A stretch of DNA of 62,531 nucleotides, counting the filler, from Actinomycetota bacterium (GTDB lineage: Bacteria; Actinomycetota; Acidimicrobiia; IMCC26256; VFJJ01): assembly GCA_009886115.1 (NCBI GenBank). It is 6 parts of 6 records of this genome, joined end to end, with 100 filler letters (N's around TTAATTAATTAA, not from the genome) between each part and the next. Parts side by side here need not be neighbours in the genome. Positions count along the whole stretch, not along the records: positions 1 to 29,709 come from VFJJ01000085.1; 5 more parts are not named here. One strand, given 5' to 3'. Below, piece after piece: positions 13,639 to 29,038 of the stretch. The notes under the pieces are model-generated. The model saw nothing but the letters and a program-made list of their open reading frames with translations. It had not been told where the DNA came from and did not search any database. Both the position numbers and the translations under genes were made by a program. Each line of letters opens with the position of its first letter. Positions within the stretch are counted from its first letter, which is position 1.

Positions 13639-15003
13639 GTGTCTGAGACACCGTCCCATCGCCGCCGCATCCCGTTGCGAGCCAGCCACACGTTCTCGCC
13701 GCAGGTGATCGACCAGATCCACACCATGGCCGAGGAGGGGCGCTACGAGATCAGGGGTTGGGGCGCCAAGCGGGTGCTGCCCACGTTCGACGATCTCGTC
13801 TTCATCTCGGCCTCGGCCTCGCGCTACCCGCTCGAGGGCTATCGGGAGAAGTGCGAGACCCGCACCGTGCTGGGGTCGCGTTTCGCATCGAAGCCCATCG
13901 TGCTCGACATCCCGATCACCATCGCGGGCATGTCGTTCGGCTCGCTGTCGGCCAATGCCAAGGAGGCCCTGGGACGCGCCGCGACGATGGTCGGCACCTC
14001 CACCACCACTGGCGACGGCGGCATGACCCCCGAGGAGCGCCGCGCCTCGAAGCAGCTCGTCTACCAGTGCCTCCCGTCGCGCTACGGCTTCAACCCGGCC
14101 GACCTGCACCGAGCCGACGCCATCGAGGTCGTGATCGGCCAGGGGGCCAAGCCCGGCGGCGGAGGGATGCTGCTGGGCCAGAAGGTGAGCGAGCGCGTCG
14201 CCGCCATGCGCACCTTGCCGGCGGGAATCGACCAGCGCTCGGCCTCGAGGCATCCCGACTGGGTGGGTCCCGACGACCTGTGCATCAAGATCGAGGAGCT
14301 GCGCGAGGCGACCAACTGGGAGAAGCCGATCTACGTGAAGGTGGGGGCGACCCGTACCGAGCACGACGTGAAGCTGGCGGTCGCGGCGGGCGCCGACGTC
14401 GTCGTGGTCGACGGCCTCCAGGGCGGGACGGGCGCGACGCAGGACGTCTTCATCGAGCACGCGGGCATCCCCACGCTGCCCGCGGTGCGCATCGCCGCGG
14501 AGGCCTTGCGCGACATCGGCAAGCAGCACGAGGTTCAGCTCATCGTCTCGGGTGGGATCCGCTCGGGTGCCGACGTGGCCAAGGCCATCGCCCTGGGCGC
14601 CACGGCGGTGTCGATCGGTGTCGCGTCGCTCATCGGGCTGGGTTGCAACCGCTCGGAGTGGTTCTCGCCCGGCGACGGCGCCTGGCACGACGTCACCGGT
14701 GAGTACGAGGCGCTCGGCGCTGCTCCCGGCTACTGCCACCACTGCCACACCGGTCGGTGCCCGGTCGGCATCACCACGCAGGACCCCGAGCTCGAGCGGC
14801 GGCTCGACCCCGAGGTCGGGGCCCGCTGGATGGCCAACTACCTCCGCGCGATGACGATGGAGCTCACGACCCTGGCCCGGGCCTGCGGGAAGTCGGATGT
14901 GCACAACCTCGAACGCGAAGACCTCGTCGCCCTCACGATCGAGGCCGCGGCCATGGCCGGGGTGCCTCTGGCCGGCACCAGCTGGATCCCGGGGAGGATC
15001 TGA
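13639..15003 (+). CDS. mgsC: N-methylglutamate synthase subunit C (GlxD; FMN-binding glutamate synthase family)
   Basis: SRYPLEGYREKC, AGMSFGSLS, TTGDGG, GQGAKPGGGG, RHPDW, DGLQGGTGA, SGGIRSGADVAKA, Fe-S motif CHHCHTGRCPVG. Confidence 0.88.
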   Translation: MSETPSHRRRIPLRASHTFSPQVIDQIHTMAEEGRYEIRGWGAKRVLPTFDDLVFISASASRYPLEGYREKCETRTVLGSRFASKPIVLDIPITIAGMSFGSLSANAKEALGRAATMVGTSTTTGDGGMTPEERRASKQLVYQCLPSRYGFNPADLHRADAIEVVIGQGAKPGGGGMLLGQKVSERVAAMRTLPAGIDQRSASRHPDWVGPDDLCIKIEELREATNWEKPIYVKVGATRTEHDVKLAVAAGADVVVVDGLQGGTGATQDVFIEHAGIPTLPAVRIAAEALRDIGKQHEVQLIVSGGIRSGADVAKAIALGATAVSIGVASLIGLGCNRSEWFSPGDGAWHDVTGEYEALGAAPGYCHHCHTGRCPVGITTQDPELERRLDPEVGARWMANYLRAMTMELTTLARACGKSDVHNLEREDLVALTIEAAAMAGVPLAGTSWIPGRI

Positions 15004-15106: not shown

Positions 15107-16510
15107 ATGGCCGCTGAGGGAGGCATCGATCGCATGGCCGACCAGCCATCGGGCACGGGGCATCCCGCCGGTAACGCTCCCGCTCCCAACGCTCCCGCTC
15201 CCAACGCTCCCGCTCCCAAGCCCACGGTGAGAGCCAACGGGAGCAGCGGGAAGGCCCGCTACCCGGCCAAGTATTCGGCCCTGAGCCTGTTCACCCACGG
15301 ACTGCGGGGACGTGATTGGCCCCGCATGTGGCGCCGGCACGAGATGCGCCCGTCCTACGACGTCGTCATCATCGGTGCCGGAGTGCACGGGCTGGCCACC
15401 GCCTACTACCTGGCGGCCAACTGGGGTGTCACCAACGTCGCCGTGCTCGACAAGGGCTATCTCGGCGGCGGCGGTTCGGGGCGCAACACCGCGATCGTGA
15501 GAGCCAACTACCTCACCCCCGAGGGCGTGCGCTTCTACGACCGGTCGGTGAAGCTCTACGAGAACCTCGCCGCCGACCTCAACTTCAACGTCATGTACTC
15601 GCAGCGCGGCCATCTCACCTTGGCCCACAACGACTCGTCGCTGCGCACGATGCGCTGGCGGGCCGAGGTGAACAAGCTCGAAGGTGTCGACTCCGAGGTC
15701 ATCGGGCCCGACGAGATCAAGGAGCTCGTGCCCTACATGGACACGAGCGAGAACACCCGCTATCCCATCCTCGGCGCCCTGTATCACCCGCCTGGAGGGA
15801 TCATCCGCCACGACGCGGTCAACTGGGGGTATGCCCGCGGCGCCGACATCCGCGGCGTGCACATCCACCAGGAGACCGAGGTGGTGGGCATCGACGTCGA
15901 GGCCGGGAAGGTCACCGGCGTTCAGACCAGCCGCGGTCGCATCGCGACGCCGGTCGTCGTCAACTGTACTGCCGGATGGGCGTCGCTGATCTCCGACATG
16001 GCCGGCGTGAAGATGCCGATCATCACCCACCCGCTGCAGGCCGCAGTCACCGAGCCGGTCAAGGTCTTCCTGAACGCGGTCGTCGTATCGGGCACGCTGC
16101 ACGTCTACGTGTCGCAGACCGACCGGGGCGAGCTCGTCTTCGGCGCCAGCACCGACCCCTACGCGTCGTACTCGACCCGGGGCTCGCTCGAGTTCACCGA
16201 GGAGCTCGCCGGTCACATCCTCGAGCTCATGCCCTCGATCTCGAAGATGCGGGTGCTCAGGCAATGGGCCGGCCTGTGCGACATCACCCCCGATTTCTCG
16301 CCGATCATGGGTGTGACGCCCGTCGAGGGATTTCTGGCCGATGTCGGCTGGGGCACCTACGGATTCAAGGCTGGCCCGGTGGCGGGTGAGTCCATGGCTG
16401 AGCTCATCGCCACCGGTGTCACGCCCGAGCTCATCGCCTCGTTCGACCTGGCCCGCTTCGCCGAAGGTCGGCTGGTGGGCGAGAAGGGCGCAGCGGCCGT
16501 CGGCCACTGA
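15107..16510 (+). CDS. soxB: Sarcosine oxidase beta / N-methylglutamate dehydrogenase subunit A (FAD)
   Basis: YSALSL...YDVVIIGAGVHGLATAYYLA, GGGSGRNTAIVRANY, RHDAVNWGYA, LRQWAG, GWGTYGFKAGP, C-terminal EKGAAAVGH; NAPAP x3 in the N-terminal extension. Confidence 0.92.
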   Translation: MAAEGGIDRMADQPSGTGHPAGNAPAPNAPAPNAPAPKPTVRANGSSGKARYPAKYSALSLFTHGLRGRDWPRMWRRHEMRPSYDVVIIGAGVHGLATAYYLAANWGVTNVAVLDKGYLGGGGSGRNTAIVRANYLTPEGVRFYDRSVKLYENLAADLNFNVMYSQRGHLTLAHNDSSLRTMRWRAEVNKLEGVDSEVIGPDEIKELVPYMDTSENTRYPILGALYHPPGGIIRHDAVNWGYARGADIRGVHIHQETEVVGIDVEAGKVTGVQTSRGRIATPVVVNCTAGWASLISDMAGVKMPIITHPLQAAVTEPVKVFLNAVVVSGTLHVYVSQTDRGELVFGASTDPYASYSTRGSLEFTEELAGHILELMPSISKMRVLRQWAGLCDITPDFSPIMGVTPVEGFLADVGWGTYGFKAGPVAGESMAELIATGVTPELIASFDLARFAEGRLVGEKGAAAVGH

Positions 16511-16547
16511 GACGCGAGCAAGTGTCGAGAGACTGCGAGGGAGTCAC

Positions 16548-16829
16548 GTGATCCTGGTGTCGTGTCCGTGGTGCGGGCCGCGCAACTCGTCGGAGTTCCG
16601 GTATGTCGGCGAGTCGAAGGGCCGGCCCGACCCCAACGCGGCCACGCCCGAGGAGTGGCGGCGCTACCTCTACGTGAAGTCGAACCCGGCCGACTGGGCC
16701 ACCGAGACCTGGTACCACCGGGCCGGGTGTCGCCGGTTCTTCGCGGTCGAGCGCCACACCGTCACCAACGAGATCCGCGAGACACGCCGGCCGGCGGCGC
16801 AGCTCCGCCTGGAGGGTGGCGGGTCATGA
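16548..16829 (+). CDS. soxD: Sarcosine oxidase delta / NMG dehydrogenase subunit B (Zn-binding)
   Basis: GTG at 16548: MILVSCPWCGPRNSSEFRY...YLYVKSNP...ETWYHRAGCRRFF...RHTVTNEI. Confidence 0.9.
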   Translation: MILVSCPWCGPRNSSEFRYVGESKGRPDPNAATPEEWRRYLYVKSNPADWATETWYHRAGCRRFFAVERHTVTNEIRETRRPAAQLRLEGGGS

Positions 16830-19672
16830 GCGCTGCGAAGGTGTCGTCGCGTACCGCGACCAAGGCTTCAAGCGGCAGCGCGGCCGCCGCGCCCATGCGG
16901 CTGGGCCCCCAGCCGGCTGAGGTGCTCGATCGCAGCCGGGTCTTGGCGTTCACCTGGAACGGCCAGCCGGTGGAGGGCTTCGATGGCGACACGATCGCCT
17001 CGGCGCTGGCGGCGGCCGGCGTGCGGGTGTTCTCCCGCAGCCTCAAGTACCACCGGCCCCGTGGATTGCTGTCGGCCACGTACCACGATCCCAACTGCAC
17101 GCTCCAGGTGGGTGACGAGCCCAACGTGCGGGCGGCGCACCGGCGCCTCAGTGCCGGGATTCACGTGCAGGCCGAGAACGCCTGGCCGTCGCTGGCGTTC
17201 GACGTGCGCTCGGCCAACCGGCTCGTCGGCCGATTTCTCGGCGCCGGCTTCTACTACAAGACGTTCATCAAGCCCCAGCGATTGTGGCCGGCCTACGAGA
17301 AGGTGTTGGCCCGCTTCGCGGCGGGAGGCGTCGTCGAGGCCGACAGCCCGCACGGGCACTTCGACAAGCGGTACGTCCACGTCGAGGTCTGTGTGGCCGG
17401 TGGCGGTCCGGCCGGGATGGCCGCGGCGATCGCCGCCGCTCAGGCCGGAGCCCGCGTTCTGCTCGTGGAGGAGGAGCACGACCTCGGCGGCCACCTCCGT
17501 TTTGGCACCGACGCCGAACGGGCCGCGATGGTCGAGCTCCGTGCCGCTGTGGCCGCCGAGCCCGGTGTCGAGGTGATGACCAACTCGGTGGTCACCGGCC
17601 GCTACGACGACAACTGGGTCGCCGTGGTTCAGCGTGGCCTTCCCGGCGTCTTCGAGCGGCTGTGCAAGGTGCGGGCTCGCACGCTCGTCGTCGCACCCGG
17701 TCTCATCGAGCGCCCGTATGTCTTCGAGGGCAACGACCTCCCGGGCGTCATGCTCTCGACTGCGGTGCGGCGCCTGGTGAACCTCCATGCGGTCAAGCCC
17801 GGTTCGAGGGCCGTCGTGCTCAGCGCCAACGCCGATGGAGACGCGGCAGCCGACGATCTGCGTCGCGTCGGGGTCGACGTGGCCCGGGTCGTCGACGCCC
17901 GTACGGGCGGCAACGTCGTGCGCGCCGACGGTGGACGGGTGCTGCGGCGAGTCGAGCTGGGCGACGGCACCAAGGTCGACTGCGACCTCCTCGTCACTGC
18001 CGTCGGCTGGACCGCCCCCACGTCGTTGCTCAACTTCGCCGGTGACCGTCCGGTCTACGACGCGGGAGCGGCCCGGTTCTTCCCCGGCGGCGCAGGTTCC
18101 GACAACGTCGTCGCCGCCGGAGGCCTGTGCGGCGACGGAACGCTCGACGAGCTGATCGCCCACGGACGTGCGGTCGGTGCCGCGGCCGCGGCCGCGGGCG
18201 AGAATGCTCGTCCGGCGATATCGGCCCTCGGGCGCGCGCCCCATCCCGAGCTGTACCGCAGCACCACGCACGGGATCGTCGACTGGAGCGAGGACGTGTC
18301 GTCGAAGGACCTCCTGGCTGCGGCCAAGGAGGGCTACGACTCGATTGAGCTCGTGAAGCGCTTCACGACCGTCACCATGGGGCCGTCGCAGGGCAAGCTC
18401 GAATCGGTCAACGCGGTCGCGATCATGAGCGAGGCTCTCCATCAGACGATTGCCGAGACCGGTACCACCGTCTGGCGGCCGCCGTACGTGCCGATCACCT
18501 TGGGAGCCTTGGCCGGACGGGGTTTCGAGAACACGCGGCTGTCTCCCATGCACGGCTGGCACGTCGCCCGCGGCGCCCGTCCCCTCGTGGCTGGCGACTG
18601 GATCCGTCCCGACCATTACGGCGATCCCGCGGCCGAGGTGAACAACGTCCGCAGCAACGTGGGTCTCATCGACGTGACCCCGCTGGGCAAGCTCGACCTG
18701 CGCGGACCAGACGTCCCGAAGCTGCTCAACCTGGTGTACGTCAACAAGTGGTCGAAGTTGCCGCTCGGCGCGGTCCGGTACGGCGTGATGTGCGCCGAGG
18801 ACGGTGTGGTGCTCGACGACGGGGTCACCGGCCGGTTGGGCGACGAGCACTACTTGATGTCGACCACGTCGTCGGGCGCGGCCACGGTGTGGGAATGGGT
18901 CGAGAACTGGCTCCAGACCGAGCATCCCGAATGGCGGGTGCACGTCACGCCGGTCACGACGGCCTACGCGTCGATGAACATCGCCGGTCCCAAGAGCCGC
19001 GAGCTGCTGGGGCGCATCCTCGAAGGTGTCGACCTGTCGCCCGAGGCGTTCCCCTACATGCACGTCCGCCAGGGGCGAATGGCCGGGGTCGACGGCTGCT
19101 TCTTGTGGCGTATCGGTTTCACCGGCGAGCTCTCGTATGAGGTGCACGTCCCGGCGGCTTACGGGCTCCACGTCTGGGAGGCCTGTTTCTCGGCCGGCGC
19201 CGATCTGGGTGTCGGGGCCTTCGGCGTGGAGGCCCAACGCATCATGCGCCTCGAGAAGGGCCATTTCATCGTGGGTCAGGACACCGACGGTCTGACCCAG
19301 GCCTACGGTGCCGACCTCGACTGGCTGGTGAAGCTCGACAAGGACGATTTCGCCGGCAAGCCCGAGCTGCGTTGGCAGCAGGAGTCTGGCGGATATCAGC
19401 GCCTCGTGGGGCTGCAACCCGTCGACCCGCGTGAGGTACCGGCCGAGGCCAGCCAGCTCGTCGAGGGGGCCAAGCACATCGTGGGCCGCATCACGTCCAG
19501 CCGGATGTCGCCCACCCTCGGACGGGCGATCTGCCTCGGGTTCGTCGCCCCGCACCTCACCGAGCCGGGGACGCTGATCACCTGCCAGCTCCCCGACCGT
19601 CGCCGTATCCAGGTTCGGGTCACCGAGCACCTGGCTCAGTTCGACCCCGACGGGGAGCGACTCCGTGGCTGA
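16826..19672 (+). CDS. soxA: Sarcosine oxidase alpha / NMG dehydrogenase subunit C (folate-binding GcvT-like C-terminus)
   Basis: ATG at 16826 (ATGA overlap): GDTIASAL, SRSLKYHRPRG, AGFYYKTF, GGGPAG, KRFTTVTMGPSQGK, DVTPLGK, RIGFTGELSYE, MRLEKGH, FDPDGERLRG. Confidence 0.93.
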   Translation: MSAAKVSSRTATKASSGSAAAAPMRLGPQPAEVLDRSRVLAFTWNGQPVEGFDGDTIASALAAAGVRVFSRSLKYHRPRGLLSATYHDPNCTLQVGDEPNVRAAHRRLSAGIHVQAENAWPSLAFDVRSANRLVGRFLGAGFYYKTFIKPQRLWPAYEKVLARFAAGGVVEADSPHGHFDKRYVHVEVCVAGGGPAGMAAAIAAAQAGARVLLVEEEHDLGGHLRFGTDAERAAMVELRAAVAAEPGVEVMTNSVVTGRYDDNWVAVVQRGLPGVFERLCKVRARTLVVAPGLIERPYVFEGNDLPGVMLSTAVRRLVNLHAVKPGSRAVVLSANADGDAAADDLRRVGVDVARVVDARTGGNVVRADGGRVLRRVELGDGTKVDCDLLVTAVGWTAPTSLLNFAGDRPVYDAGAARFFPGGAGSDNVVAAGGLCGDGTLDELIAHGRAVGAAAAAAGENARPAISALGRAPHPELYRSTTHGIVDWSEDVSSKDLLAAAKEGYDSIELVKRFTTVTMGPSQGKLESVNAVAIMSEALHQTIAETGTTVWRPPYVPITLGALAGRGFENTRLSPMHGWHVARGARPLVAGDWIRPDHYGDPAAEVNNVRSNVGLIDVTPLGKLDLRGPDVPKLLNLVYVNKWSKLPLGAVRYGVMCAEDGVVLDDGVTGRLGDEHYLMSTTSSGAATVWEWVENWLQTEHPEWRVHVTPVTTAYASMNIAGPKSRELLGRILEGVDLSPEAFPYMHVRQGRMAGVDGCFLWRIGFTGELSYEVHVPAAYGLHVWEACFSAGADLGVGAFGVEAQRIMRLEKGHFIVGQDTDGLTQAYGADLDWLVKLDKDDFAGKPELRWQQESGGYQRLVGLQPVDPREVPAEASQLVEGAKHIVGRITSSRMSPTLGRAICLGFVAPHLTEPGTLITCQLPDRRRIQVRVTEHLAQFDPDGERLRG

Positions 19673-20336
19673 GAGCACGATCGCCGATGCCGACGCCGCG
19701 GGCACCCCGCCCGTGGCCCGCAGCTCGATCAGCCAAGCACCGCCCGTTGCCGTCGTCGACGGCTGGGAGGTGTCGCAGCGCACGAGCGATGCCGTGCTGA
19801 CGCTGTCGGACGAGAGCGCGCTGGCCAAGGTCGTCGTCCACGGGCCCGAGGCGGGAGCCTTCGCCGGTGCGATGGGGGTGGCTTTCGGACGGGCTACCCG
19901 GCGAGACGACGGCGTGCTCGTCGTCGGGTCGTCGCCTGGAGAATGGCTGCTGATCGGGGCCCCCGGCACCGGCGCGGCTCTGGAGGCCGCCGTCGCGGCC
20001 GGAGTCGACCCGGCCGGCGACCCGGCCGGCGACTTCGTGACGATGGTCGACATCACCCACGGGCGGGCGCTCATACGGCTCACCGGGGCCGCGGCGCCGA
20101 GCCTCATGGCCAAGATCTGCGCCGTCGACCTCGACGATCGGGTCACCCCCAACGCCACGGCGCTGCGCACCTCGGTGGCCAAGCTGGTGACCGACGTGGT
20201 GCGCGACGATCGGCCCGACGGCACGAGGTCGTACCTGTTGCACTGCGACCGGTCGTCGGGGCAGGTGTTGTTCGATGCCGTGCTCGACGCCGGTATCGAA
20301 CACGGCATCGACATCGCGGGTTTCACTGCCAGATGA
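19665..20336 (+). CDS. soxG: Sarcosine oxidase gamma / NMG dehydrogenase subunit D
   Basis: SPGEWLL, VDITHGRALIRLTG, KICAVDL, DRSSGQVLFDAVLDAG; overlaps the end of soxA. Confidence 0.82.
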   Translation: MAESTIADADAAGTPPVARSSISQAPPVAVVDGWEVSQRTSDAVLTLSDESALAKVVVHGPEAGAFAGAMGVAFGRATRRDDGVLVVGSSPGEWLLIGAPGTGAALEAAVAAGVDPAGDPAGDFVTMVDITHGRALIRLTGAAAPSLMAKICAVDLDDRVTPNATALRTSVAKLVTDVVRDDRPDGTRSYLLHCDRSSGQVLFDAVLDAGIEHGIDIAGFTAR

Positions 20337-20365: not shown

Positions 20366-22063
20366 ATGGTATTTCCGACCGATCTGCAAATTGCCCGCGA
20401 GGCGACGCTCAAGCCGCTGCCCGAGATCGCGCACAGCATGGGTATCGGCGAGCATTTGCTCGAAGCCCACGGCGAGAGCGTGGCCAAGATCAAGCTGGAG
20501 GCCATCGAGGAGCTCTCGTCGCGACCCGATGCCAAGTACGTGGTCGTCACGGCGATCACGCCGACCCCACTGGGTGAGGGCAAGACGACGACCACCGTGG
20601 GTCTTGGCCAGGCCATGGCCCGCATCGGTCGGCAGGCGACGATCTCGTTGCGCCAACCGTCGATGGGGCCGACGTTCGGGATCAAGGGCGGAGCGGCCGG
20701 CGGCGGGTACAGCCAGGTCGTGCCCATGGAGCTGTTGAACCTCCATCTCACCGGCGACTTCCACGCCGTGACCGCAGCGCACAACTTGCTGGCTGCGATG
20801 CTCGACAACCATCTGCACCAGGGCAACGAGCTCGGCTTCGACCTGCACAACATCACCTGGCGACGCGCGCTCGACGTCAACGATCGGGCGCTGCGCAACA
20901 TCATCATCGGCATGGGCACCAAGGAGGACGGGGTCGTCCGTCAGAGCGGTTTCGACATCACCGCGGCGTCGGAGGTGATGGCCGTCCTCGGCCTGGCGAG
21001 CTCGATCACCGATCTCAGGGCCCGGCTGGGGCGCATCGTTGTGGGGTACACGAAACAGGGTGAGCCGATCACCGCCGAGCAGCTGCACGGCGCCGGATCG
21101 ATGGCCGTGATGCTGCGCGAGGCGATCAAGCCCAACCTGTTGCAGACGCTCGAGAACACCCCGGTGATCGTGCACACCGGACCGTTCGGCAACATCGCGC
21201 ACGGGAACTCGTCGATCATCGGCGACCTCGTCGGCATCAAGACGGGTGAGTACCTCATCACCGAGGCCGGCTTCGGCGCCGACATGGGCGCCGAGCGCTT
21301 CTTCAACATCAAGTGCCGCTACTCGGGCCTCACGCCCCACGCGGCTGTGCTCGTGGCGACGGTCCGGGCGCTCAAGGCCCATTCGGGACGGCACCGGATC
21401 GTGGCCGGCAAGGCGTTGCCTGAGGCGCTGCTGGCCGAGAACCCCGATGAGGTGCACATGGGCGGGGCGAACCTGCGCAAGCAGATCGAGAACGTGATGA
21501 TCCACGGCGTCGCCCCTGTCGTGGCGATCAACGCCTTCCCCACCGATCACCCGTCCGAGCACGACGCCATCCGAGAGATCGCCGAGGCGATGGGGGCGCG
21601 CGTCGCGGTGTGCACCCATTTCTCCGAGGGTGGTGCTGGGGCGGTTGATCTGGCCCACGCCGTGGTCGCCGCGGCCGACGAGAAGACCAGCTTCGCTCCG
21701 CTGTATCCCGACTCGGCCAGCCTCCGCGAGAAGATCGAGATCGTGGCCACCAAGGTCTATGGGGCCGCCGACGTGAGTTACTCGGCGCAGGCGGCCAAGC
21801 AGCTCGACACCTACGAGCGCAACGGCTTTGGGAACCTGCCTGTCTGCATCGCCAAGACCCACCTGTCGATCTCGTCGGATGCCACGCTCAAGGGCGCCCC
21901 CACGGGCTGGACGCTGCCGGTGCGCGAGGTGCGTGCCTCGGTCGGCGCCGGCTTCGTCTACCCGATCTGCGGCGACATGCGGACGATGCCCGGGCTGGGC
22001 TCGGCGCCGGCGGCGGCGATCATCGACTTCGACGACGACGGCGAGATCGTGGGCCTGTCGTGA
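20366..22063 (+). CDS. fhs: Formate--tetrahydrofolate ligase
   Basis: TAITPTPLGEGKTTTTVGL, FGIKGGAAGGGYSQV, NLHLTGDFHA, GPFGNIAHG, TEAGFGADMGAERF, VATVRALK, MPGL. Confidence 0.97.
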   Translation: MVFPTDLQIAREATLKPLPEIAHSMGIGEHLLEAHGESVAKIKLEAIEELSSRPDAKYVVVTAITPTPLGEGKTTTTVGLGQAMARIGRQATISLRQPSMGPTFGIKGGAAGGGYSQVVPMELLNLHLTGDFHAVTAAHNLLAAMLDNHLHQGNELGFDLHNITWRRALDVNDRALRNIIIGMGTKEDGVVRQSGFDITAASEVMAVLGLASSITDLRARLGRIVVGYTKQGEPITAEQLHGAGSMAVMLREAIKPNLLQTLENTPVIVHTGPFGNIAHGNSSIIGDLVGIKTGEYLITEAGFGADMGAERFFNIKCRYSGLTPHAAVLVATVRALKAHSGRHRIVAGKALPEALLAENPDEVHMGGANLRKQIENVMIHGVAPVVAINAFPTDHPSEHDAIREIAEAMGARVAVCTHFSEGGAGAVDLAHAVVAAADEKTSFAPLYPDSASLREKIEIVATKVYGAADVSYSAQAAKQLDTYERNGFGNLPVCIAKTHLSISSDATLKGAPTGWTLPVREVRASVGAGFVYPICGDMRTMPGLGSAPAAAIIDFDDDGEIVGLS

Positions 22064-22079
22064 CGCCGCCACCCCTGGA

Positions 22080-22140
22080 CCTCCCGAAATGTGCGCGGAA
22101 TTGCTCACGGGGTGAGCTTTTCCGCGCACATTTGGGGAGG
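22080..22140 (+). terminator. Long stem-loop after fhs (terminator or REP-like palindrome)
   Basis: CCTCCCGAAATGTGCGCGGAA...TTCCGCGCACATTTGGGGAGG with an inner GCTCAC/GTGAGC stem. Confidence 0.65.
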
Positions 22141-22173
22141 GGAGGGCCTCCGGGGCCGGGTACCGAGGCGTTT

Positions 22174-22210
22174 GTCAACTGTGGCGAGACGGTGTTGAAT
22201 GTGGGGAAAC
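22174..22210. promoter_or_regulatory. Tandem 17-bp operator pair (site 5), upstream of the second GS-like gene
   Basis: Reverse complements read GTCTC-GCCACAG-TTGAC (22174-22190) and GTTTC-CCCACAT-TCAAC (22194-22210), 20 bp apart as at site 1. Confidence 0.65.
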
Positions 22211-22235
22211 ACGGCAACGACAACCTGGGGGAATC

Positions 22236-23633
22236 GTGACCACTGATCTCGAACGCTTTCTGGGGCAGGACGCACGGGACGCCGCGGTCGCCGAGGTACG
22301 GCGTCAGATCGACGCCGCCGGCGTGCAGTACATCTACTACCAGTTCGTCTCGGTGACGGGCCGGGTGATGGGCAAGGGCATCCCGGCCAAGCACTGGGAA
22401 CGCACCGCCCGCAGCGGGTTCCAGCTCGTGTATGGGGCCACCGCCAACCTGTTCGTCGACCGGAAGGGCAACTACATCGGCTACGGCCCCGAGGCCCGTG
22501 AGCTCGTCGGCCTGCCCGAGCCCGAGACGTTCTGCGTGCTCCCGTGGGACACCAAGACGGCCCGGGTGTTCTGCACGCTGTTCCGGGGCCGGGAGGAAGA
22601 GGTGGACCCGGGCGCGTTCCTCACGTCCGACTGCCGGGGGAACTTGAAGCGCATCCACCGGTCGTTCGAGGAGGAGACCGGGCACCACATGCGGGTGGGC
22701 TGTGAGCCCGAGATGATGTGGCTCAAGACCAATCCCGACGGGACCCCGTCGGTCGAGGGCATGACCAAGCCCTACTGCTATCACATCGACCAGTTCTCCG
22801 AGCTCCAACCCATCATCCACAAGGTGTTGGAGTACGCCGAGGCGATGGGCCTCGACATGATCCAGGGCGACCACGAGGACGCGCCGGGCCAGCTCGAGCT
22901 GAACTTCCAGTTCGACCGGGCCGAGCTCACGGCCGACCGCCTCACCACCTACCGCCAGATCTGCCGGCAGGTCGGTCGTGAGATGGGAGCCTTCCCGTGC
23001 TTCATGCCCAAGCCGTTCATGGGCGTCTCGGCCAATGGCTGCCACCACAACTTCTCGCTGTGGCAGGGCGAAACCAACACGTTCATGCCCGACACGAGCA
23101 ATCCCCGCATGCCCGGCAAGATGGGCATGCCCGCGCTCGGAGGAATCCTCGCCCACTTGCGGGCATTGACGGCCATCAGCGCTTCCACAGTGAACTCCTA
23201 CCGCCGCTTCGCCGACGCCGGCTTCTGGGCTCCGATCTTCGCCGACTGGGGATTCCAGAACCGCACCACGGCCATTCGGGTCTCGGCCCCGGGACGCTTC
23301 GAGTACCGCTCGGTCGACTCGGCCGTGAACCAGTACCTGTGCATGGCCGGCATGCTCGTGTGCATGCGCGACGGCATCCGCAACAACATCGATCCCGGTG
23401 AGCCCGAGGAACGCAACATCTACCAGGCCATCGAGGGCGGTAAGCAGGTCAAGCGGATTCCCGCCACCTTCGGCGAGGCGCTCGACGAGCTCGAACGCGA
23501 CGAAGTCGTCAAGGAAGCTTTGCCCGGCGACATGTACACGGTATTCATGCACTACAAGCGCGACGAGTGGGAACGCTTCATCTCGACTGTCACTGAGTGG
23601 GACATCAAGGAGTACCTCGACGTGCTGCCCTGA
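22236..23633 (+). CDS. Second glutamine synthetase-family protein (probable gamma-glutamyl-amine ligase)
   Basis: YYQFVSVTGRVMGKGIP, VGCEPE, KPYCYH, GDHEDAPGQLELNF, FMPKPF...NGCHHN, NSYRR, WGFQNRT, FEYRSVDSAVN. It has DHED as GmaS does, not the HHEV of canonical GlnA. Confidence 0.88.
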   Translation: MTTDLERFLGQDARDAAVAEVRRQIDAAGVQYIYYQFVSVTGRVMGKGIPAKHWERTARSGFQLVYGATANLFVDRKGNYIGYGPEARELVGLPEPETFCVLPWDTKTARVFCTLFRGREEEVDPGAFLTSDCRGNLKRIHRSFEEETGHHMRVGCEPEMMWLKTNPDGTPSVEGMTKPYCYHIDQFSELQPIIHKVLEYAEAMGLDMIQGDHEDAPGQLELNFQFDRAELTADRLTTYRQICRQVGREMGAFPCFMPKPFMGVSANGCHHNFSLWQGETNTFMPDTSNPRMPGKMGMPALGGILAHLRALTAISASTVNSYRRFADAGFWAPIFADWGFQNRTTAIRVSAPGRFEYRSVDSAVNQYLCMAGMLVCMRDGIRNNIDPGEPEERNIYQAIEGGKQVKRIPATFGEALDELERDEVVKEALPGDMYTVFMHYKRDEWERFISTVTEWDIKEYLDVLP

Positions 23634-23701
23634 CGGGTCGCCGGTGGGCGGGGTTCGTCACAGGAGTACGCCGAAGGTGAGACGGTCGAGGGAGGACTGG
23701 T

Positions 23702-24631
23702 ATGTGCGGGATCGCCGGGGTGATCCATCGCGATGGCGAGGCCGACATCGGCCAGGAGATGGTCCAGATGCTCCAGGCCATGAAGCATCGGGGGCCTGAC
23801 TCGACGGGATATGCGCTCTACGCGCCGCCGACCGAGGGGATCGTCATCCGCTTCAAGCTGGCCGATGCGAACGACGCGCGCGACTTCGAGTTCGGCGAGC
23901 GGCTCGAACGGCACCGGAACGAGGTCGAGGCGCGACTGGGCAAGATCGGGGCCACGGTCGAGCGGATGGAGGGCGACACCGAGTACGCCTTCCGGGCCCG
24001 GGTGCGCTACACGGGCGACATCAAGGCGCTCGCCGACTACCTCGAGGACGTGCCGGGCTGTGAGGTGCTCTCGATCGGAACGTCGCTCGAGATCGTCAAA
24101 GACATCGGCGACGCCGAGACCGTCGCTGGTATGTATCACCTTGGCGGCTTTCGCGGCACACACGCGATCGGTCACGTGCGCATGGCCACCGAGTCCGATG
24201 TCGACATCTCCGGAGCCCACCCCTACTGGGCGTATCCGTTCAGCGACGTCGCCGTGGTGCACAACGGTCAGCTCACGAACTACTTCCACTGGAAGCGCCG
24301 CCTCGAACGTTCGGGCCACCGCTTCCAGAGCGAGTGCGACTCAGAGATCATCGCGGTGTACCTCGCCGAGAAGATGGCCGCTGGCGCGTCGCTCGAAAGC
24401 GCGATGAAGCAGAGCCTCGACGATTTGGACGGGGTCTTCACCTATGTCGCGGTCACCAGCGACTCGCTCGGTGTGGCCAAGGACGAGATGGCAGCCAAGC
24501 CGTTGGTGCTGTTCGAATCCGAGAACCTCGTGGTGTTGGCGTCGGAGGAGATGGCGATCCGGGCCATCATCGATCACGAGATCGACACCTATGACCCCTA
24601 CGAGGGTCAGGTGCTGGTGTGGTCACGGTGA
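23702..24631 (+). CDS. Second GlxB/MgsA-like class II amidotransferase subunit
   Basis: MCGIAG, HRGPDSTG, GHVRMATES, AHPY, VHNGQLTNY, CDSEII, LDGVFTY. Confidence 0.85.
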   Translation: MCGIAGVIHRDGEADIGQEMVQMLQAMKHRGPDSTGYALYAPPTEGIVIRFKLADANDARDFEFGERLERHRNEVEARLGKIGATVERMEGDTEYAFRARVRYTGDIKALADYLEDVPGCEVLSIGTSLEIVKDIGDAETVAGMYHLGGFRGTHAIGHVRMATESDVDISGAHPYWAYPFSDVAVVHNGQLTNYFHWKRRLERSGHRFQSECDSEIIAVYLAEKMAAGASLESAMKQSLDDLDGVFTYVAVTSDSLGVAKDEMAAKPLVLFESENLVVLASEEMAIRAIIDHEIDTYDPYEGQVLVWSR

Positions 24632-24659
24632 AACGGTCCCGTCGAAACGGGGAGGGCTG

Positions 24660-25448
24660 ATGGCCGAAGGTTCGAGCCAGCGTGTCACCTATGACGCTCG
24701 GGGTCTGTCTGAACCGACCGTCGAGACACCGAAGGTGTCGCAGATCGACGGCGATCGTGCCGTCTTCGATGCCGGACCGTTGACAACGCGTCAGATCAAC
24801 CGTGAGCTGCGGTGGCTCGTCTACGAGGAGGGCGTGCACGACGTGACGATCACCAACCCCGGGGCCAAGCACTCCCTCGGCGTGGCGATCCTCACTCGTT
24901 GCACGATCACGTTCGAGGGAAGCCTGGGGTACTTCGGATGCGGGCTCATCGACGGCCCCGAGATCCATATCACCGGGCGGGTGGGATGGTCGTTCGGCGA
25001 GAACATGATGAGTGGTGTCGTCGTGATCGACAAGAACGCCGGTTCGCTCACCGGGGCGGCGTTTCGTGGCGGCGACCTCGTCGTCAAGGGAGACGTCGGG
25101 GCCCGCACCGGGATCGACCAGAAGGGCGGGACCATCCTCGTGGGCGGTAACGGCGGCATGAACATCGGGTTCATGATGCAGCGAGGACGACAGATCTACT
25201 GCGGCAACGTGGGGCCCGGTCTCGGCGACTCGATGTACGACGGGTCGATCTATGTGGCCGGTTCGGTGAAGTCGCTCGGGATCGACTGTGTCGAAGCCGA
25301 GTTCACCCCGGCCGACAAGGAGATGATCGACCGCAAGTTCGCCATCTACGACTTCGGGACGCCGCCGGCTTTCCGGAAGTTCACCTGCGGTCGCCAGCTC
25401 TGGAACTACGACAACCTCGAGCCCAGCGAACGCAAGCTCGTTTTGTAG
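24660..25448 (+). CDS. Second GlxC/MgsB-like GXGXG subunit
   Basis: ATG at 24660 after GGAGG; RQINRELR, GSLGYFGCG, GWSFGENMMSG, GIDQKGG, GFMMQRG, GDSMYDG. Confidence 0.85.
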   Translation: MAEGSSQRVTYDARGLSEPTVETPKVSQIDGDRAVFDAGPLTTRQINRELRWLVYEEGVHDVTITNPGAKHSLGVAILTRCTITFEGSLGYFGCGLIDGPEIHITGRVGWSFGENMMSGVVVIDKNAGSLTGAAFRGGDLVVKGDVGARTGIDQKGGTILVGGNGGMNIGFMMQRGRQIYCGNVGPGLGDSMYDGSIYVAGSVKSLGIDCVEAEFTPADKEMIDRKFAIYDFGTPPAFRKFTCGRQLWNYDNLEPSERKLVL

Positions 25449-25510
25449 CTGTAGCCGGCACGCGCTGCACCGCGCTCGGACGCCCCGATCCACTGTGGAA
25501 GGACGCTGAC

Positions 25511-26917
25511 ATGGCCGTCGAGGATTCGACATCGAACAAGAACATCCTCGGGACGAGTCGCATCTTCACGCCCGAGGTCATCAACGACATCCACGTGAAA
25601 TCCGAGCTGGGCCGGTATCGGATGCGGGGCTTCTCGATGTTCAAGAAGATCCCCCACTGGGACGAGCTGATGTTCCTTCCCGGCACCCTCACCCGTTTCG
25701 TGATCGAGGGATACCGTGAGAAGTGCTCGACCAAGACGGTGCTCGGAGCGCGCTTCGCCAAGAACCCCATCGAGCTCGACATCCCCATCTACATCACGGG
25801 GATGAGCTTCGGAGCCCTGTCGCTCGAGGCCAAGATGGCTCTGGCCAAAGGAGCCTCGATGGCGGGGACGGCGACGTGCTCGGGCGAGGGCGGCATGATC
25901 CCGCCCGAGCGCGATTACTCGACCAAGTGGTATTACCAGTGTATCCAGAGTCGGTACGGCTTCAACCCGCATCACCTGATGCTCGCCGACGCCTGTGAGT
26001 TCTTCATTGGCCAGGGTTGCAAGGTCGGCCTCGGTGGTCACCTGATGGGCCAGAAGGTCACCGAGCAGGTGGCCGAGATGCGTTCGCTGCCCGCCGGTAT
26101 CGACCAGCGTTCACCGGCTCGTCATCCCGACTGGCTGGGGCCTGACGACCTCTCGCTCAAGATCCAAGAGATCCGCGAAGCCACCGATTACCGGATACCC
26201 ATCCAGCTCAAGCTCGGTGCGGCCCGGGTGTACGACGACGTGCGCATGGCGGCCAAGTGCGGCCCCGACATCATCTATCTCGACGGGGCCGAGGGGGGGA
26301 CCGGCGCCGGTCCGCACATCGCCACCGAGGAGACCGGTATCCCGTTGATGGCGGCGATCCCCGAGGCCCGTCGGGCGCTCGAGGACGTCGGGCTGGCCGA
26401 CGAGATCGACCTGGTCGTCGCCGGCGGCATTCGCAACGGCGCTGACGTGGCCAAGTGCATCAGCCTGGGGGCCAAGGCGGTGGCGATCGGTCATGCGAGC
26501 CTGATGGCGCTCAACTGCAACAAGGAGTTACCGGGGATCACCGATTACGAGGGCACGATCGGCGTGCCGGCTGGGAGCTGTTATCACTGTCACACCGGGC
26601 GCTGCCCCGTGGGGGTGGCGACACAAGACCCCGAGCTGCGCAAGCGCCTGAACGTTGAGGAAGGGGCGACGCGGGTCTACAACTTCCTGCACACCCTCAC
26701 CCTCGAGCTCCAGATGCTGGCCCGGGCCTGCGGGAAGACCGATGTCCACTCGCTCGAGCCTGAAGACCTCTGTGCGCTCACGGTGGAGGCCTCGGCCATG
26801 GCCCGGGTGCCCCTTGCGGGAACCAGTTGGATCCCCGGAACCACCGAGGACCGTACGCTGGCCCGCATCGAGAGTCTCCTCGAGAAGTATCTCGCCGACC
26901 GGGGCGGTGTGTCGTGA
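25511..26917 (+). CDS. Second GlxD/MgsC-like FMN/Fe-S glutamate synthase-family subunit
   Basis: IEGYREKC, GMSFGALS, CSGEGG, GQGCKVGLGG, RHPDW, DGAEGGTGA, AGGIRNGADVAK, CYHCHTGRCPVG. Confidence 0.88.
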   Translation: MAVEDSTSNKNILGTSRIFTPEVINDIHVKSELGRYRMRGFSMFKKIPHWDELMFLPGTLTRFVIEGYREKCSTKTVLGARFAKNPIELDIPIYITGMSFGALSLEAKMALAKGASMAGTATCSGEGGMIPPERDYSTKWYYQCIQSRYGFNPHHLMLADACEFFIGQGCKVGLGGHLMGQKVTEQVAEMRSLPAGIDQRSPARHPDWLGPDDLSLKIQEIREATDYRIPIQLKLGAARVYDDVRMAAKCGPDIIYLDGAEGGTGAGPHIATEETGIPLMAAIPEARRALEDVGLADEIDLVVAGGIRNGADVAKCISLGAKAVAIGHASLMALNCNKELPGITDYEGTIGVPAGSCYHCHTGRCPVGVATQDPELRKRLNVEEGATRVYNFLHTLTLELQMLARACGKTDVHSLEPEDLCALTVEASAMARVPLAGTSWIPGTTEDRTLARIESLLEKYLADRGGVS

Positions 26918-27372
26918 GCGACGCGAGCGGCAACAGTCCGATCGTGCATCATCTCTCGACCCGGACCGGTATTGACGCCGAGGAGCTCGCCGGGCGGAGC
27001 TTCCCCTACCAGCACGACCTCGCGCTGGTTGAGAACGTCGATCTCATCGCGTCCACGCCGGGGAAGGACCTGAACTGGCTGGAGGACGTGTCGTTGCTGG
27101 TCGAGGACGGCGTTCCTGCGGTGTTCGACCGGTACTCCAACTCGTTCCTCAAGATCCACTTCCCGATCCCGCCCGGACGGGAGGACGAGATCGCCCGCAA
27201 GGTCCTCATCACGCACCTCCAGTCGGGGAACTCGTACGGGATCATCCTCAAGCGCAAGCACGCCAAGTTCCCCCAGCCCGAGCTCGGACCATGGGTTGAC
27301 GGATCCGATTTGGTCGGCCAGGACTGGAAACCGTCCGTGCTCGAAGGCTGGGAAAGCCCCAGCGGCCACTGA
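26914..27372 (+). CDS. Hypothetical protein (152 aa) translationally coupled to the second glxD-like gene
   Basis: GTGA start/stop overlap at 26914; high-GC3 codon usage and globular composition; no family recognised. Confidence 0.75.
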   Translation: MSDASGNSPIVHHLSTRTGIDAEELAGRSFPYQHDLALVENVDLIASTPGKDLNWLEDVSLLVEDGVPAVFDRYSNSFLKIHFPIPPGREDEIARKVLITHLQSGNSYGIILKRKHAKFPQPELGPWVDGSDLVGQDWKPSVLEGWESPSGH

Positions 27373-27384
27373 GCCATCGACGTC

Positions 27385-28134
27385 GTGATCGAGCGGGCGC
27401 TCGTCCTCCAGCACATCGCCTGTGAACCTCCGGGCGTGTACGAGGACGTGCTCGTCGAGCGGGGCGTTGAGCTGGTGCGCGTCGAGCTCGACGCGGGCGA
27501 GTCGTTGCCGCCGTGGCGCGACTCCGACCTGATGGTGGTCATGGGCGGCCCCATGGGCGCCTACGAGGTGGAGGCCCACCCCTGGCTCGAGGGCGAGATC
27601 GCGGCCGTCGGCGACGCTGCTCGGGCCGGCCATCCCGTCTGGGGCGTGTGCCTGGGCGCTCAGATCCTCGCCGCGGCGCTGGGGGCTCCGGTGTATGCCG
27701 GCCCGGCACCTGAGGTCGGGGTGCTGCCGGTCACGCTCACCGACGCAGGTCGGACCGATCCGGTGCTCCGCGAGCTCGACCGGGCGCCGGCCGGCGACGC
27801 GGCTGGTGACGCGGCCGGCGATGCGCTGACGCTCCAGTGGCACGGCGACACGTTCGATCTCCCGGCTGGAGCCGAACTGCTCGCATCCTCGGGCGCGTAC
27901 CCTCAGCAGGCGTTCCGCTACGGGCGTTCGTACGGCCTCCAGTTCCACCTCGAGGTGTCACGCTCGATGGCCGCGGAGTGGGCCCTGGTCCCGGCCTACC
28001 GGGCCGCGCTCGACAGCGTCCTTGGCCCGGATTCGTGGCCGGCGCTGCAGCGTGACTTCGAGGCCCAGGTCGACGAGATGCGCGCACATGCTCGCTCGAT
28101 GTTCACCCACTGGCTCGACGTGGTCGTCGGCTGA
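27385..28134 (+). CDS. Class I (type 1) glutamine amidotransferase, GMP-synthase-like
   Basis: LQHIACEPPG, VVMGGPMG, GVCLGAQ nucleophile elbow, QWHGDTFDLP, LQFHLE (Cys-His-Glu triad). Confidence 0.9.
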   Translation: MIERALVLQHIACEPPGVYEDVLVERGVELVRVELDAGESLPPWRDSDLMVVMGGPMGAYEVEAHPWLEGEIAAVGDAARAGHPVWGVCLGAQILAAALGAPVYAGPAPEVGVLPVTLTDAGRTDPVLRELDRAPAGDAAGDAAGDALTLQWHGDTFDLPAGAELLASSGAYPQQAFRYGRSYGLQFHLEVSRSMAAEWALVPAYRAALDSVLGPDSWPALQRDFEAQVDEMRAHARSMFTHWLDVVVG

Positions 28135-28610
28135 TGACTGCGTCTCTGGAGCTCGTGATCGACGCCGTCGATGCTGAGGCGGTCGCTCACTTCTGGGCGC
28201 AGGCCCTACCGGCCGAGGTGCTGTATCGGCGCCCGCCTTATCTGGTGCTGGGCCTGGAGAGCGGGATACGGGTGCTCATCCAGCAGGTTGGGGATCCTCG
28301 GGAGCCGGAGCCGTCGGGTCCGGTCCTAAGCAGCGCTCCGGAGAGGATCGGAAGTGTTCACATCGACCTGCGCGTCGACGACCCCACGGCGACCGTCGAG
28401 CGCATCGTGGCCTTGGGAGCCCGCGTGTTGCGACACGTCGACGAGCGTGAGGACGGCGGTACGACCTGGACGGTTCTCGAAGATCCCTGGGGAATGGCGT
28501 TCTGCATCGCCCCGGCCCGGGACACCGCCGCAGCCAGCGCAGGATGTGATAAGCCGACCCTCGGGCGCGACAGGCGCCGCTCGAACGACCAAGACATGGG
28601 GGGCCCGTGA
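28134..28610 (+). CDS. VOC/glyoxalase-like protein
   Basis: VIDAVDAEAVAHFWAQAL...VHIDLRVDD...ALGA...WTVLEDPWGMAFCI; TGATG overlap with the GATase gene. Confidence 0.82.
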   Translation: MTASLELVIDAVDAEAVAHFWAQALPAEVLYRRPPYLVLGLESGIRVLIQQVGDPREPEPSGPVLSSAPERIGSVHIDLRVDDPTATVERIVALGARVLRHVDEREDGGTTWTVLEDPWGMAFCIAPARDTAAASAGCDKPTLGRDRRRSNDQDMGGP

Positions 28611-29038
28611 AGACGATCGTGGTTGGTACCGACGGCTCGGAGAGTTCGCTGGGCGCGGTACGTGAGGCCGCCAAGATGGCGGTGGCCCTCGATGCGACCC
28701 TCAACATTGCCTGCGTTGCCCGTCAGGCGATCGACTTCTCGGCGGCCGCGATGGCGCCGATGCCTGCGATGTTCGACACGAGCGCGAGCAGTGATGCCGA
28801 AGCGTCCGTCGCCAGTGCTGCGGATGCGGCTGCGGAGCTCGGCGCGGTCGTGGAGCGCCATGTGGTGCACGGAGAGCCGTCGGCCGCGCTGATCGAGCTG
28901 TGCGAGAAGCTCGACGCCGACCTGCTGGTCGTCGGCAGCCGCGGCATGACGGGCGCCGCGCGGTTCCTGCTCGGTAGCGTCCCCAACCGCTGCGCCCACC
29001 ACGCGCCGTGCTCCGTGCTGATCGTCCGCACGACCTGA
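28607..29038 (+). CDS. Universal stress protein
   Basis: IVVGTDGSESS...ADLLVVGSRGMTGAARFLLGSVPNRCAHHAPCSVLIVR. Confidence 0.93.
   Translation: MKTIVVGTDGSESSLGAVREAAKMAVALDATLNIACVARQAIDFSAAAMAPMPAMFDTSASSDAEASVASAADAAAELGAVVERHVVHGEPSAALIELCEKLDADLLVVGSRGMTGAARFLLGSVPNRCAHHAPCSVLIVRTT

Follow-up and report, generated by a model that had tools for sequence, protein, structure and literature searches.

The N-methylglutamate pathway, comprising GmaS, MgsABC (GlnT/GlxBCD) and MgdABCD, has been characterised in Methyloversatilis, Methylobacterium and Methylocella. Gamma-glutamylation is also the basis of the Puu and Ipu pathways (PuuA/PuuD and IpuC/IpuF), and the glycine betaine demethylation chain employs a dimethylglycine demethylase and then a sarcosine demethylase. 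Here we describe a second, divergent gamma-glutamylation gene set, module 2, in a 62,531-nucleotide stretch of DNA from an Actinomycetota bacterium (the window, which consists of several contigs joined by N-runs and has a GC content of 63-72%). Only window positions 1-29709 form one contig (C135), the N-run beginning at 29710, and this contig belongs to a 5.45-Mb metagenome-assembled genome (MAG) that is 95.6% complete. It carries gmaS, mgsABC, soxBDAG and fhs, as the initial annotation had stated, and then module 2, which comprises six plus-strand open reading frames (ORFs) within 22236-28134:

22236-23633, plus strand: GS2, a ligase of the glutamine synthetase (GS) family (Gln-synt_C, 279 bits)
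23702-24631, plus strand: A2, a class II (N-terminal nucleophile, Ntn) amidotransferase subunit, GlxB/MgsA-like (GATase_6, 67.8 bits; GATase_7, 61.6 bits; N-terminal MCGI)
24660-25448, plus strand: B2, a GXGXG subunit, GlxC/MgsB-like (GXGXG, 45 bits)
25511-26917, plus strand: C2, a synthase subunit with flavin mononucleotide (FMN) and iron-sulphur (Fe-S) sites, GlxD/MgsC-like (Glu_synthase, 312.8 bits)
26914-27372, plus strand: orf152, 152 amino acids, without a match in Pfam or NCBIfam; the GTG start and the C2 stop overlap in GTGA
27385-28134, plus strand: a class I glutamine amidotransferase (GATase; PF00117, 55.2 bits)

We propose that module 2 is a copy of a widespread, uncharacterised catabolic cassette that acts downstream of Tdm, the demethylase of trimethylamine N-oxide (TMAO), and provides a glutamate-dependent route for dimethylamine (DMA); genomic context is the basis of this assignment, to which we give an even chance of being right.

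Tdm makes DMA, and the known next enzyme is DmmDABC, which occurs in Ruegeria, Methylocella and Paracoccus and is described as absent from many marine bacteria that carry tmm, tdm and gmaS, a gap called a bottleneck in 2017 (PMC5520151). The role that we propose resembles that of DmmDABC, namely the clearing of Tdm-made DMA in the use of trimethylamine (TMA) and TMAO as carbon and nitrogen sources by an enzyme encoded beside tdm. The two systems share no homology: Dmm is a heme/PAS, FMN/2Fe-2S and tetrahydrofolate-binding oxygenase that needs O2 and NADPH (PMC5520151), whereas the cassette would spend ATP and use glutamate as carrier.

Module 2 shares several features with the N-methylglutamate pathway. 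It has a putative GS-family amine ligase with the Asp, Glu and flap Trp of GmaS and a three-subunit, split glutamate-synthase-like enzyme, and is tied to a Sox-type demethylating flavoenzyme, to folate and to methylated-amine genes. It differs in that its proteins are 30% (GS), 31% (A), 41% (B) and 56% (C) identical to those of the canonical set (module 1) and GS2 lies below the curated GmaS cut-off; in its own C2 motifs and a longer, Asp-bearing GS2 loop; and in that the cassette adds orf152 and a 443-amino-acid DAO flavoprotein, coexists with the canonical set and tracks Tdm. The second set is an old, separately conserved paralogue and not a recent duplicate, as the initial annotation had held. 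No published description of the cassette was found in the literature searched, which did not include subscription journals.

Relatives of GS2 number at least 596 in one-per-species genomes. The best 80 of these, at 70-96% identity, were surveyed as loci and come from Acidimicrobiia, Actinomycetes, Gaiellales and one Chloroflexota MAG. The order GS2-A2-B2-C2-orf152 is intact in 61 of the 80 loci; the other 19 comprise seven cut by contig ends, ten where a GATase and a third GS-like gene come next to GS2 in its place, and two with GS2 alone. Neighbours of the cassette elsewhere include genes that pass or resemble the Tmm and Tdm models, OpuAC-type ABC transporters, SoxBDAG, Fhs, FolD and GCV_T proteins; an FMO at one locus (L029) passes the Tmm model with 726.6 bits. 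Throughout, the curated cut-offs were 469.6 bits for GmaS (TIGR03105), 429.15 for GlnA (TIGR00653), 1100 for Tdm (NF053776) and 675 for Tmm. The survey ties module 2 to amine and one-carbon genes and not to ordinary glutamine synthetase/glutamate synthase (GS/GOGAT) genes, in agreement with the initial annotation. Of the 50 GS2-bearing genomes (40 of which have the cassette), 32 encode a DUF1989 domain within a Tdm-sized frame, 700 amino acids or longer, in most cases on the GS2 contig and 10-40 kb away.

The association was also measured in two evenly drawn samples that both include the MAG studied here: 401 genomes of the class, searched for orf152, Tdm and GmaS, the negatives of which include one unpublished genome (G304), and 301 genomes of the phylum, searched for orf152 and Tdm. 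In the class sample, orf152 is present in six genomes and Tdm above cut-off in five, all five orf152-positive; GmaS above cut-off is present in 12, including all six with orf152. The phylum sample has 13 genomes with orf152 and ten with Tdm above cut-off, again all orf152-positive, and in the nine of these other than our MAG the Tdm gene lies on the orf152 contig, approximately 1-7 kb apart. Tdm above cut-off was found in no orf152-negative genome of either sample. The sampled positives span at least nine families. The sets are nested, Tdm within orf152 within GmaS, as one would expect of a cassette that carries the monomethylamine pathway up to the Tdm product.

The alpha-subunit family PF11927 (heme/PAS) served as the marker for Dmm. 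It was not found in the MAG studied here, which is 95.6% complete, and was detected in none of the five other orf152 genomes of the class sample and none of the nine other Tdm genomes of the phylum sample; in total, none of the 14 Tdm-bearing genomes sampled gave a match. The same search did find it in 2 of the 50 GS2-bearing genomes (G001 and G012), and is thus able to find Dmm. Tmm is present in four of five sampled orf152 genomes and was not found in the MAG studied here. As amine examples for module 2 the initial annotation had offered dimethylamine and ethylamine. The former fits the context, given the near-perfect co-occurrence of orf152 with Tdm and the missing Dmm; ethylamine has no contextual support.

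GmaS scores above cut-off in 38 of the 50 GS2-bearing genomes, and module 2 is not a replacement for the canonical GmaS pathway. Ten canonical GmaS loci (L101-L110) were retrieved, of which eight have a full trio of A1-B1-C1 type, one is mixed (L107) and one has none (L106). The co-presence of canonical GmaS in these 38 genomes argues that module 2 has a different job. One closed chromosome (G018) carries Tdm, soxB, soxA, soxG, the cassette and the DAO flavoprotein and has no GmaS above cut-off; the cassette there must carry the whole flux, and module 2 can therefore stand alone.

GS2 falls below the cut-offs of both relevant models, scoring 311.2 bits against TIGR03105 (469.6) and 262.8 bits against GlnA TIGR00653 (429.15). 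Among sequences with solved structures it scores highest against an archaeal glutamine synthetase (219 bits), followed by GmaS proteins at 204 and 171 bits, and it is about equally far from both. In a GS tree (quick method, LG+G4, all rows kept, SH-aLRT support), 78 GS2 sequences form one clade with 100% support, a stem of 1.68 and short internal branches; the clade is sister to GmaS at 80% support.

The structural work on the GmaS of Rhodovulum (RhGmaS) assigns deprotonation of methylamine to Asp177, with Glu186 as a second base, and finds Trp300 in place of the flap Glu of GS and Ala48' in place of Asp50' (PMC7948447). The same work gives Km values of 27 uM for monomethylamine (MMA), 58 uM for ethylamine and 16 mM for DMA, which is thus handled poorly (PMC7948447). 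The GmaS-like DHED motif noted for GS2 in the initial annotation is present in both ligases of the contig (GS1, the canonical GmaS, and GS2) and includes the catalytic Asp177, in the numbering of that work (PMC7948447). By alignment, GS2 D212, E221 and W331 correspond to GmaS Asp177, Glu186 and the flap Trp300, and the segments DHEDAPGQLE and GFWAP are conserved across all 78 GS2 orthologues at the 90% level. The signature of GlnA is lacking, since GS2 has Trp at the flap-Glu position and DHE instead of HHE. Because the Asp, Glu and flap Trp of GmaS are retained, GS2 is, as judged from its sequence, an amine ligase and not an ammonium ligase or glutamine synthetase.

On the amine side GS2 departs from GmaS. 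Its orthologues share a conserved loop, LF(I/V)DR(H/K)G.YIGYG, that is nine residues longer than the FAGFAAG loop of GmaS. In GS2 itself the loop reads LFVDRKGNYIGYG; by alignment only, it lacks the short form of GmaS, in which Ala48' takes the place of Asp50', and D75 within it corresponds to the Asp of FDGSS in GS. The remodelled loop would fit an altered amine specificity without identifying the amine.

A2, B2 and C2 together have the three separate subunits of MgsABC/GlxBCD, that is an Ntn domain with N-terminal Cys, a GXGXG protein and an FMN-type Glu_synthase protein. By identity, best hit and motif they are not orthologues of the set beside canonical gmaS. The true ATG of B2 is preceded by the ribosome-binding site GGGGAGGG, and a longer ORF from 24444 would overlap A2. 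C2 has CSGEGG at residue 123, GQGCKVGLGGH at 167 and CYHCHTGRCP at 357, the last being kept in 61 of 62 C2-type sequences. These 62 part cleanly from 19 C1-type sequences by best hit and by motif: GTATCSGEGG (58 of 62) and GQGCKVGLGGH (59 of 62) mark the former, GTSTTTGDGG and GQGAKPGGGG (18 of 19 each) the latter. The motif contrasts that the initial annotation had drawn between the two sets (GQGCKVGLGG and CSGEGG against GQGAKPGGGG and TTGDGG) are therefore diagnostic of the families. The NCBIfam scan brought up no MgsABC-specific curated model, and current annotation will mislabel the cassette as 'glutamine synthetase / glutamate synthase'.

The gene after C2 had been regarded as an orphan. 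It is not one: 7,557 protein clusters match orf152 at E <= 0.001. All of these are unnamed or 'hypothetical' and carry no Pfam domain, and homologues of 63-79% identity follow GS2-A2-B2-C2 in the 61 intact loci. Distant relatives are scarce; at the 50% clustering level there are 175 representatives (E <= 0.001), nearly all at least 60% identical. The C-terminus reads ...LEGWExPxGH with an invariant last His. The AF2 model is of good quality (pLDDT 84.5, pTM 0.77) and resembles nothing in the structure sets searched: a Foldseek search of the PDB found nothing at E <= 0.001, the highest Z from VIA-align over 48,161 chains was 2.6, and comparison with a protein atlas gave scores of at most 0.85, to unrelated helicase fragments. 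A Pfam scan at E <= 0.01 also gave no match. orf152 is a core component of the cassette, a small protein family without recognisable fold that is new to a well-known enzyme class.

Co-folding of orf152 with C2 gave an ipSAE of 0.65 (runs at 0.65, 0.70 and 0.01) against 0.00 for the best control, with contact agreement between runs of at least 0% and a partner pLDDT of at least 62. For comparison, 116 of 157 solved complexes and 2 of 215 mismatched pairs score that high. The predicted interface joins residues 71-78 and 108-121 of orf152, its most conserved stretches, to C2 residues 128-139, the loop directly after CSGEGG. Fused proteins link GlxD-like sequences to orf152 (P0124, 617 amino acids, and P0137) and orf152 to DAO (P0184 and P0200), some of which may be gene-calling artefacts. 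The start of orf152, lying within the C2 stop overlap, also couples its translation to that of C2. orf152 probably binds C2 as a candidate fourth subunit; the co-fold supports this without proving it.

The remaining member of the cassette is the DAO-type flavoprotein, which occurs in 48 of the 61 cassette loci and directly adjoins orf152 in five of five sampled genomes. Downstream sequence of 2 kb or more is present at 58 of the loci, and in 40 of these the flavoprotein gene comes immediately after orf152. In the MAG studied here its orthologue (69% identical) is on a different contig, C80, at approximately 8658-9992, upstream of an ACAD-fold protein and of tdm; the latter (C80:11508-13865) passes the Tdm model with 1134.8 bits against 1100. 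Module 2 had been supposed to feed a single dehydrogenase shared with module 1, which this dedicated flavoprotein contradicts. In the nearest relatives of the window the order is cassette, GATase, glyoxalase-like gene and DAO, with a glyoxalase-like homologue between GATase and DAO in two loci (L009 and L060), the second of which continues to Tdm. The nearest solved sequences of the flavoprotein, which match its N-terminal half only, are sarcosine oxidase beta, dimethylglycine dehydrogenase and dimethylglycine oxidase. These enzymes demethylate N-methyl amino acids.

These components can be assembled into the following route. GS2 would use ATP to join DMA and glutamate as gamma-glutamyl-dimethylamide. 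A2-B2-C2, with orf152 on C2, would free the amine at the Ntn site and reductively re-attach it at the FMN site, giving N,N-dimethylglutamate. The DAO flavoprotein would then take off one methyl group and the SoxBDAG/Mgd-type enzyme (15107-20336) the second, and the one-carbon units would pass to tetrahydrofolate and Fhs. Canonical GmaS/MgsABC (module 1) would handle free MMA. The logic proposed for N,N-dimethylglutamate and then N-methylglutamate is that of the glycine betaine chain, in which two DAO-family flavoenzymes carry out successive N-demethylations and deliver the one-carbon units to folate; the difference is that glutamate would take the place of glycine as carrier, and that ATP-dependent ligation of a free amine would bring in the methyl groups. 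Neither gamma-glutamyl-dimethylamide nor N,N-dimethylglutamate was found reported in a bacterial pathway in the literature searched. The claim in full is that six genes (GS2, A2-B2-C2, orf152 and DAO) form a Dmm-independent DMA route through these two intermediates, with orf152 as a new-fold subunit, in essentially all Tdm-bearing Actinomycetota. We put this forward tentatively, as somewhat more apt to fail than to hold.

Several points weigh against a DMA route. (i) The assignment of DMA rests on co-occurrence and gene order, and as kin are not independent the co-occurrence counts overstate significance, hence no P value is given. (ii) Four sampled orf152-positive genomes (G136, G493, G670 and G694) have no Tdm, and 6 of the 40 cassette-bearing genomes have no Tdm-sized DUF1989 frame, with two more ambiguous; the cassette thus operates in the absence of Tdm as well, an imported amine being one possible substrate. 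(iii) A secondary amine must form an iminium ion at the FMN site, which is chemically plausible and would be unprecedented for this enzyme family. (iv) The DAO flavoprotein could itself oxidise DMA, leaving module 2 for MMA. (v) The search for a known DMA enzyme covered Dmm and did not extend to a TMADH-type DMA dehydrogenase. (vi) One of the three co-fold runs of orf152 and C2 scored 0.01. (vii) In ten loci a GS2 orthologue stands in a GS2-GATase-GS3 arrangement instead of the cassette.

These ten loci (L015, L018-L025 and L063), which adjoin a canonical module 1, have a GS2 orthologue approximately 75% identical to ours, a class I GATase and a third, very divergent GS-like gene, and nine of the GS2 orthologues form a subclade in the GS tree. 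Their genomes have no A2-B2-C2, and neither orf152 nor a Tdm-sized frame was found in any of the ten.

Point (iv) leads to the strongest alternative, in which module 2 is a second MMA (N-methylglutamate) module for the TMAO route. The DAO flavoprotein, with a GCV_T partner or SoxBDAG, would make MMA from DMA; GS2 and A2-B2-C2 would process the MMA, and orf152 would tether the two enzymes. This accounts equally well for the Tdm association and the missing Dmm, and agrees with the retention of all three GmaS-type catalytic features in GS2, with the position of DAO next to orf152 and its occasional fusion to it, and with a GCV_T-only protein after DAO in five loci (L011, L012, L014, L026 and L058). 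However, it offers no reason for the canonical GmaS to be kept in so many of the same genomes, mostly with its full trio at the retrieved loci, and leaves the long stem branch and remodelled amine-side loop of GS2 unexplained. The nearest solved relatives of the DAO protein also agree with N-methyl amino acid substrates and, to our knowledge, DAO-family demethylases act on carboxylate-bearing N-methyl amino acids and not on free small amines. We consider this joint reading unlikely, while giving it more weight than any other competitor of the DMA route.

Glutamylation of another primary amine (such as ethylamine, ethanolamine or aminopropanol) is improbable. GS-like ligases are often promiscuous, as the micromolar Km of RhGmaS for ethylamine illustrates (PMC7948447), and some cassettes occur without Tdm; however, the neighbours are Tdm, Tmm, SoxBDAG, Fhs, FolD and GCV_T and not aldehyde or alcohol dehydrogenases, and the MAG has a Puu-like set with an aldehyde dehydrogenase elsewhere, on contig C150. 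That module 2 is an alternative ammonium-assimilating GS/GOGAT pair is scarcely credible, for although its domains are those of a GS and a split archaeal-type glutamate synthase and the top solved match of GS2 is archaeal, GS2 fails the GlnA model and has Trp for the flap Glu and Asp for the His of HHE, ordinary GlnA-like and GltB-like genes are already present on contigs C73 and C52 of the same genome, and the cassette tracks Tdm rather than general nitrogen metabolism.

The GATase that closes module 2 had been assigned the hydrolysis of the gamma-glutamyl amide. This is difficult to maintain as a pathway step, since the gene follows orf152 in only 5 of the 61 cassettes; it comes directly after GS2 in 10 of the 19 loci without the full cassette, and is present at 15 of the 80 GS2 loci overall. 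We regard it as a lineage-specific accessory and not a core step. The protein scores 187.7 bits against the PRK07053 model, under the cut-off of 250, and carries C89, H188 and E190, which we take to be a Cys-His-Glu catalytic triad. The pairing of a GS-like ligase with a protein of class I amidotransferase fold, potentially a hydrolase of gamma-glutamyl amides, recalls the Puu and Ipu pathways. Unlike PuuD and IpuF, which are of the Peptidase_C26 type, the window protein matches PF00117 only, and it is C150 that carries a true PuuA/PuuD-like pair together with an aldehyde dehydrogenase.

That region (C150:6973-18390) is a third gamma-glutamylation set, comprising an aldehyde dehydrogenase, an SDR protein, an APC permease, a PuuA-like GS, a PuuD-like hydrolase (Peptidase_C26, 195 bits), a 991-amino-acid DAO-FAO_M-GCV_T dehydrogenase and an amidohydrolase. 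The tdm region (C80:8199-15057) contains, besides the DAO flavoprotein, an ACAD-fold protein (C80:9940-11505) with weak likeness to two-component flavin monooxygenases and a flavin reductase on the opposite strand (C80:14503-15057). The pair was considered as a general DMA enzyme and rejected as lineage-specific: the ACAD-fold protein has no homologue at E <= 1e-40 in the five other sampled orf152 genomes and a homologue in 1 of the 80 loci. It may, with the reductase, oxidise TMA, standing in for the Tmm that is absent here.

The remaining features of contig C135 form an island with module 2:

7432-8124, minus strand: helix-turn-helix (HTH) and cupin regulator, PuuR-like (HTH_3, 58.8 bits; Cupin_2, 40.3 bits)
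8256-9815, plus strand: APC-family permease (AA_permease_2, 149 bits)
9816-10301, after the permease gene: weakly universal stress protein (USP)-like ORF, 161 amino acids (sub-threshold USP match, 20.1 bits)
10416-11768, minus strand: GS1, canonical GmaS (TIGR03105, 596.6 bits against 469.6)
11900-15003, plus strand: MgsABC-like trio, A1 11900-12853, B1 12850-13572 and C1 13639-15003 (GATase_6/7, GXGXG and Glu_synthase, the last 320 bits)
15107-16510, plus strand: soxB (DAO domain; soxB model 519.6 bits, just below the 529.45 cut-off)
16557-16787 (domain, approximate; ORF end 16829), plus strand: soxD (SoxD Pfam, 95.3 bits)
16562-19672 (longest ORF), plus strand: soxA
19665-20336, plus strand: soxG
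20366-22063, plus strand: fhs (FTHFS)
28134-28610, plus strand: glyoxalase-like gene (Glyoxalase_6, 80.5 bits), overlapping the GATase gene and co-directional with it
28607-29038, plus strand: USP gene (Usp, 118.8 bits), overlapping the glyoxalase-like gene

The domains of the soxBDAG-fhs block are DAO, GCV_T, SO_alpha_A3 and FTHFS, and the real start of soxA is probably downstream of soxD. GS1 matches solved GmaS structures at 390 bits (Rhodovulum, 7cql) and 376 bits (9qur). The Fe-S motif pattern C..C....C is kept in C1 of the window and is unmatched in 7 of 19 canonical MgsC-type proteins (loci L018-L025 and L101-L110). The permease has as its top NCBIfam match a TMAO permease model, at 169 bits far under the cut-off of 690, and the ORF at 9816-10301 is kept beside permease and GmaS genes in other genomes at 32-55% identity.

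The HTH-cupin protein, which scores 44.7 bits against the NCBIfam PuuR model and under its cut-off, is a candidate regulator of the island as judged by its domains. A homologue at 45% identity or more adjoins GS2 in 13 of the 61 cassette loci and 11 of the 19 others. Between the regulator and permease genes lies a perfect palindrome, TGTTTC-N7-GAAACA (8155-8173), which is a candidate operator; a second operator-like site, TGTTGA-N7-GAAACA (22193-22211, plus strand), ends 25 bp before the GS2 start. The common pattern TGTT-N9-GAAACA has only these two sites in the 62.5 kb, counted as three matches because the palindrome reads on both strands, against 0.49 expected by chance, and three matches are reached in 2 of 100 shuffles. 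Of the 80 loci scanned, eight (L006, L007, L010, L011, L012, L014, L026 and L058) have the motif at a distance of 44-101 bp upstream of GS2, and two more (L016 and L023) have weaker copies. The suggestion that module 2 shares the operator of the island is thus plausible for this lineage. A copy with two mismatches was noted by eye only in the divergent region between GS1 and A1, and no claim is made for it.

A 61-nt stem-loop with a nested inner hairpin (22080-22140, plus strand) lies 3' of fhs and folds at -52.7 kcal/mol (z = -8.36), a stability matched by 0 of 200 shuffles. A scan of 21900-22400 for sigma-70 promoters and T-run terminators made no call, and the stem-loop has no T-run; it may be a terminator between fhs and module 2 or a regulatory element. 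Given so stable a structure between fhs and GS2, module 2 looks like its own transcription unit.

The island itself is found in other samples. DNA runs of an independent study contain near-identical contigs of it, and an independent MAG (locus L006) has the same fhs-GS2 junction. The metatranscriptome run X8 has short near-identical contigs over GS1, A1, B1, soxB, soxA and 26901-27205; contigs from an RNA library are no proof of transcription, and the uncovered parts are no proof either way. The last gene of the contig (29045-29709) is adenylate/guanylate-cyclase-like; the genome holds over 20 paralogues of it, mostly 77-87% identical, on contigs C165, C159, C94, C219, C26, C192, C174 and C72, with nine on C165 at a spacing of approximately 2.7 kb. 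This multi-copy gene probably explains the assembly break at 29709, and the cluster in the window may be cut there, 0.7 kb past the USP gene.

Methylated amines are a large pool of organic nitrogen in the sea and in soil and are aerosol precursors. Many bacteria have the preceding and the following steps but no DmmDABC, a gap that has been read as a metabolic bottleneck (PMC5520151). A conserved gene set that travels with Tdm in Dmm-less genomes makes the question of this DMA gap directly addressable, and culturable carriers of the cassette exist in Pseudonocardia acaciae DSM 45401, P. spinosispora DSM 44797 and Tamaricihabitans halophyticus DSM 45765. Module 2 may supply the DMA step that cassette-bearing bacteria otherwise lack.

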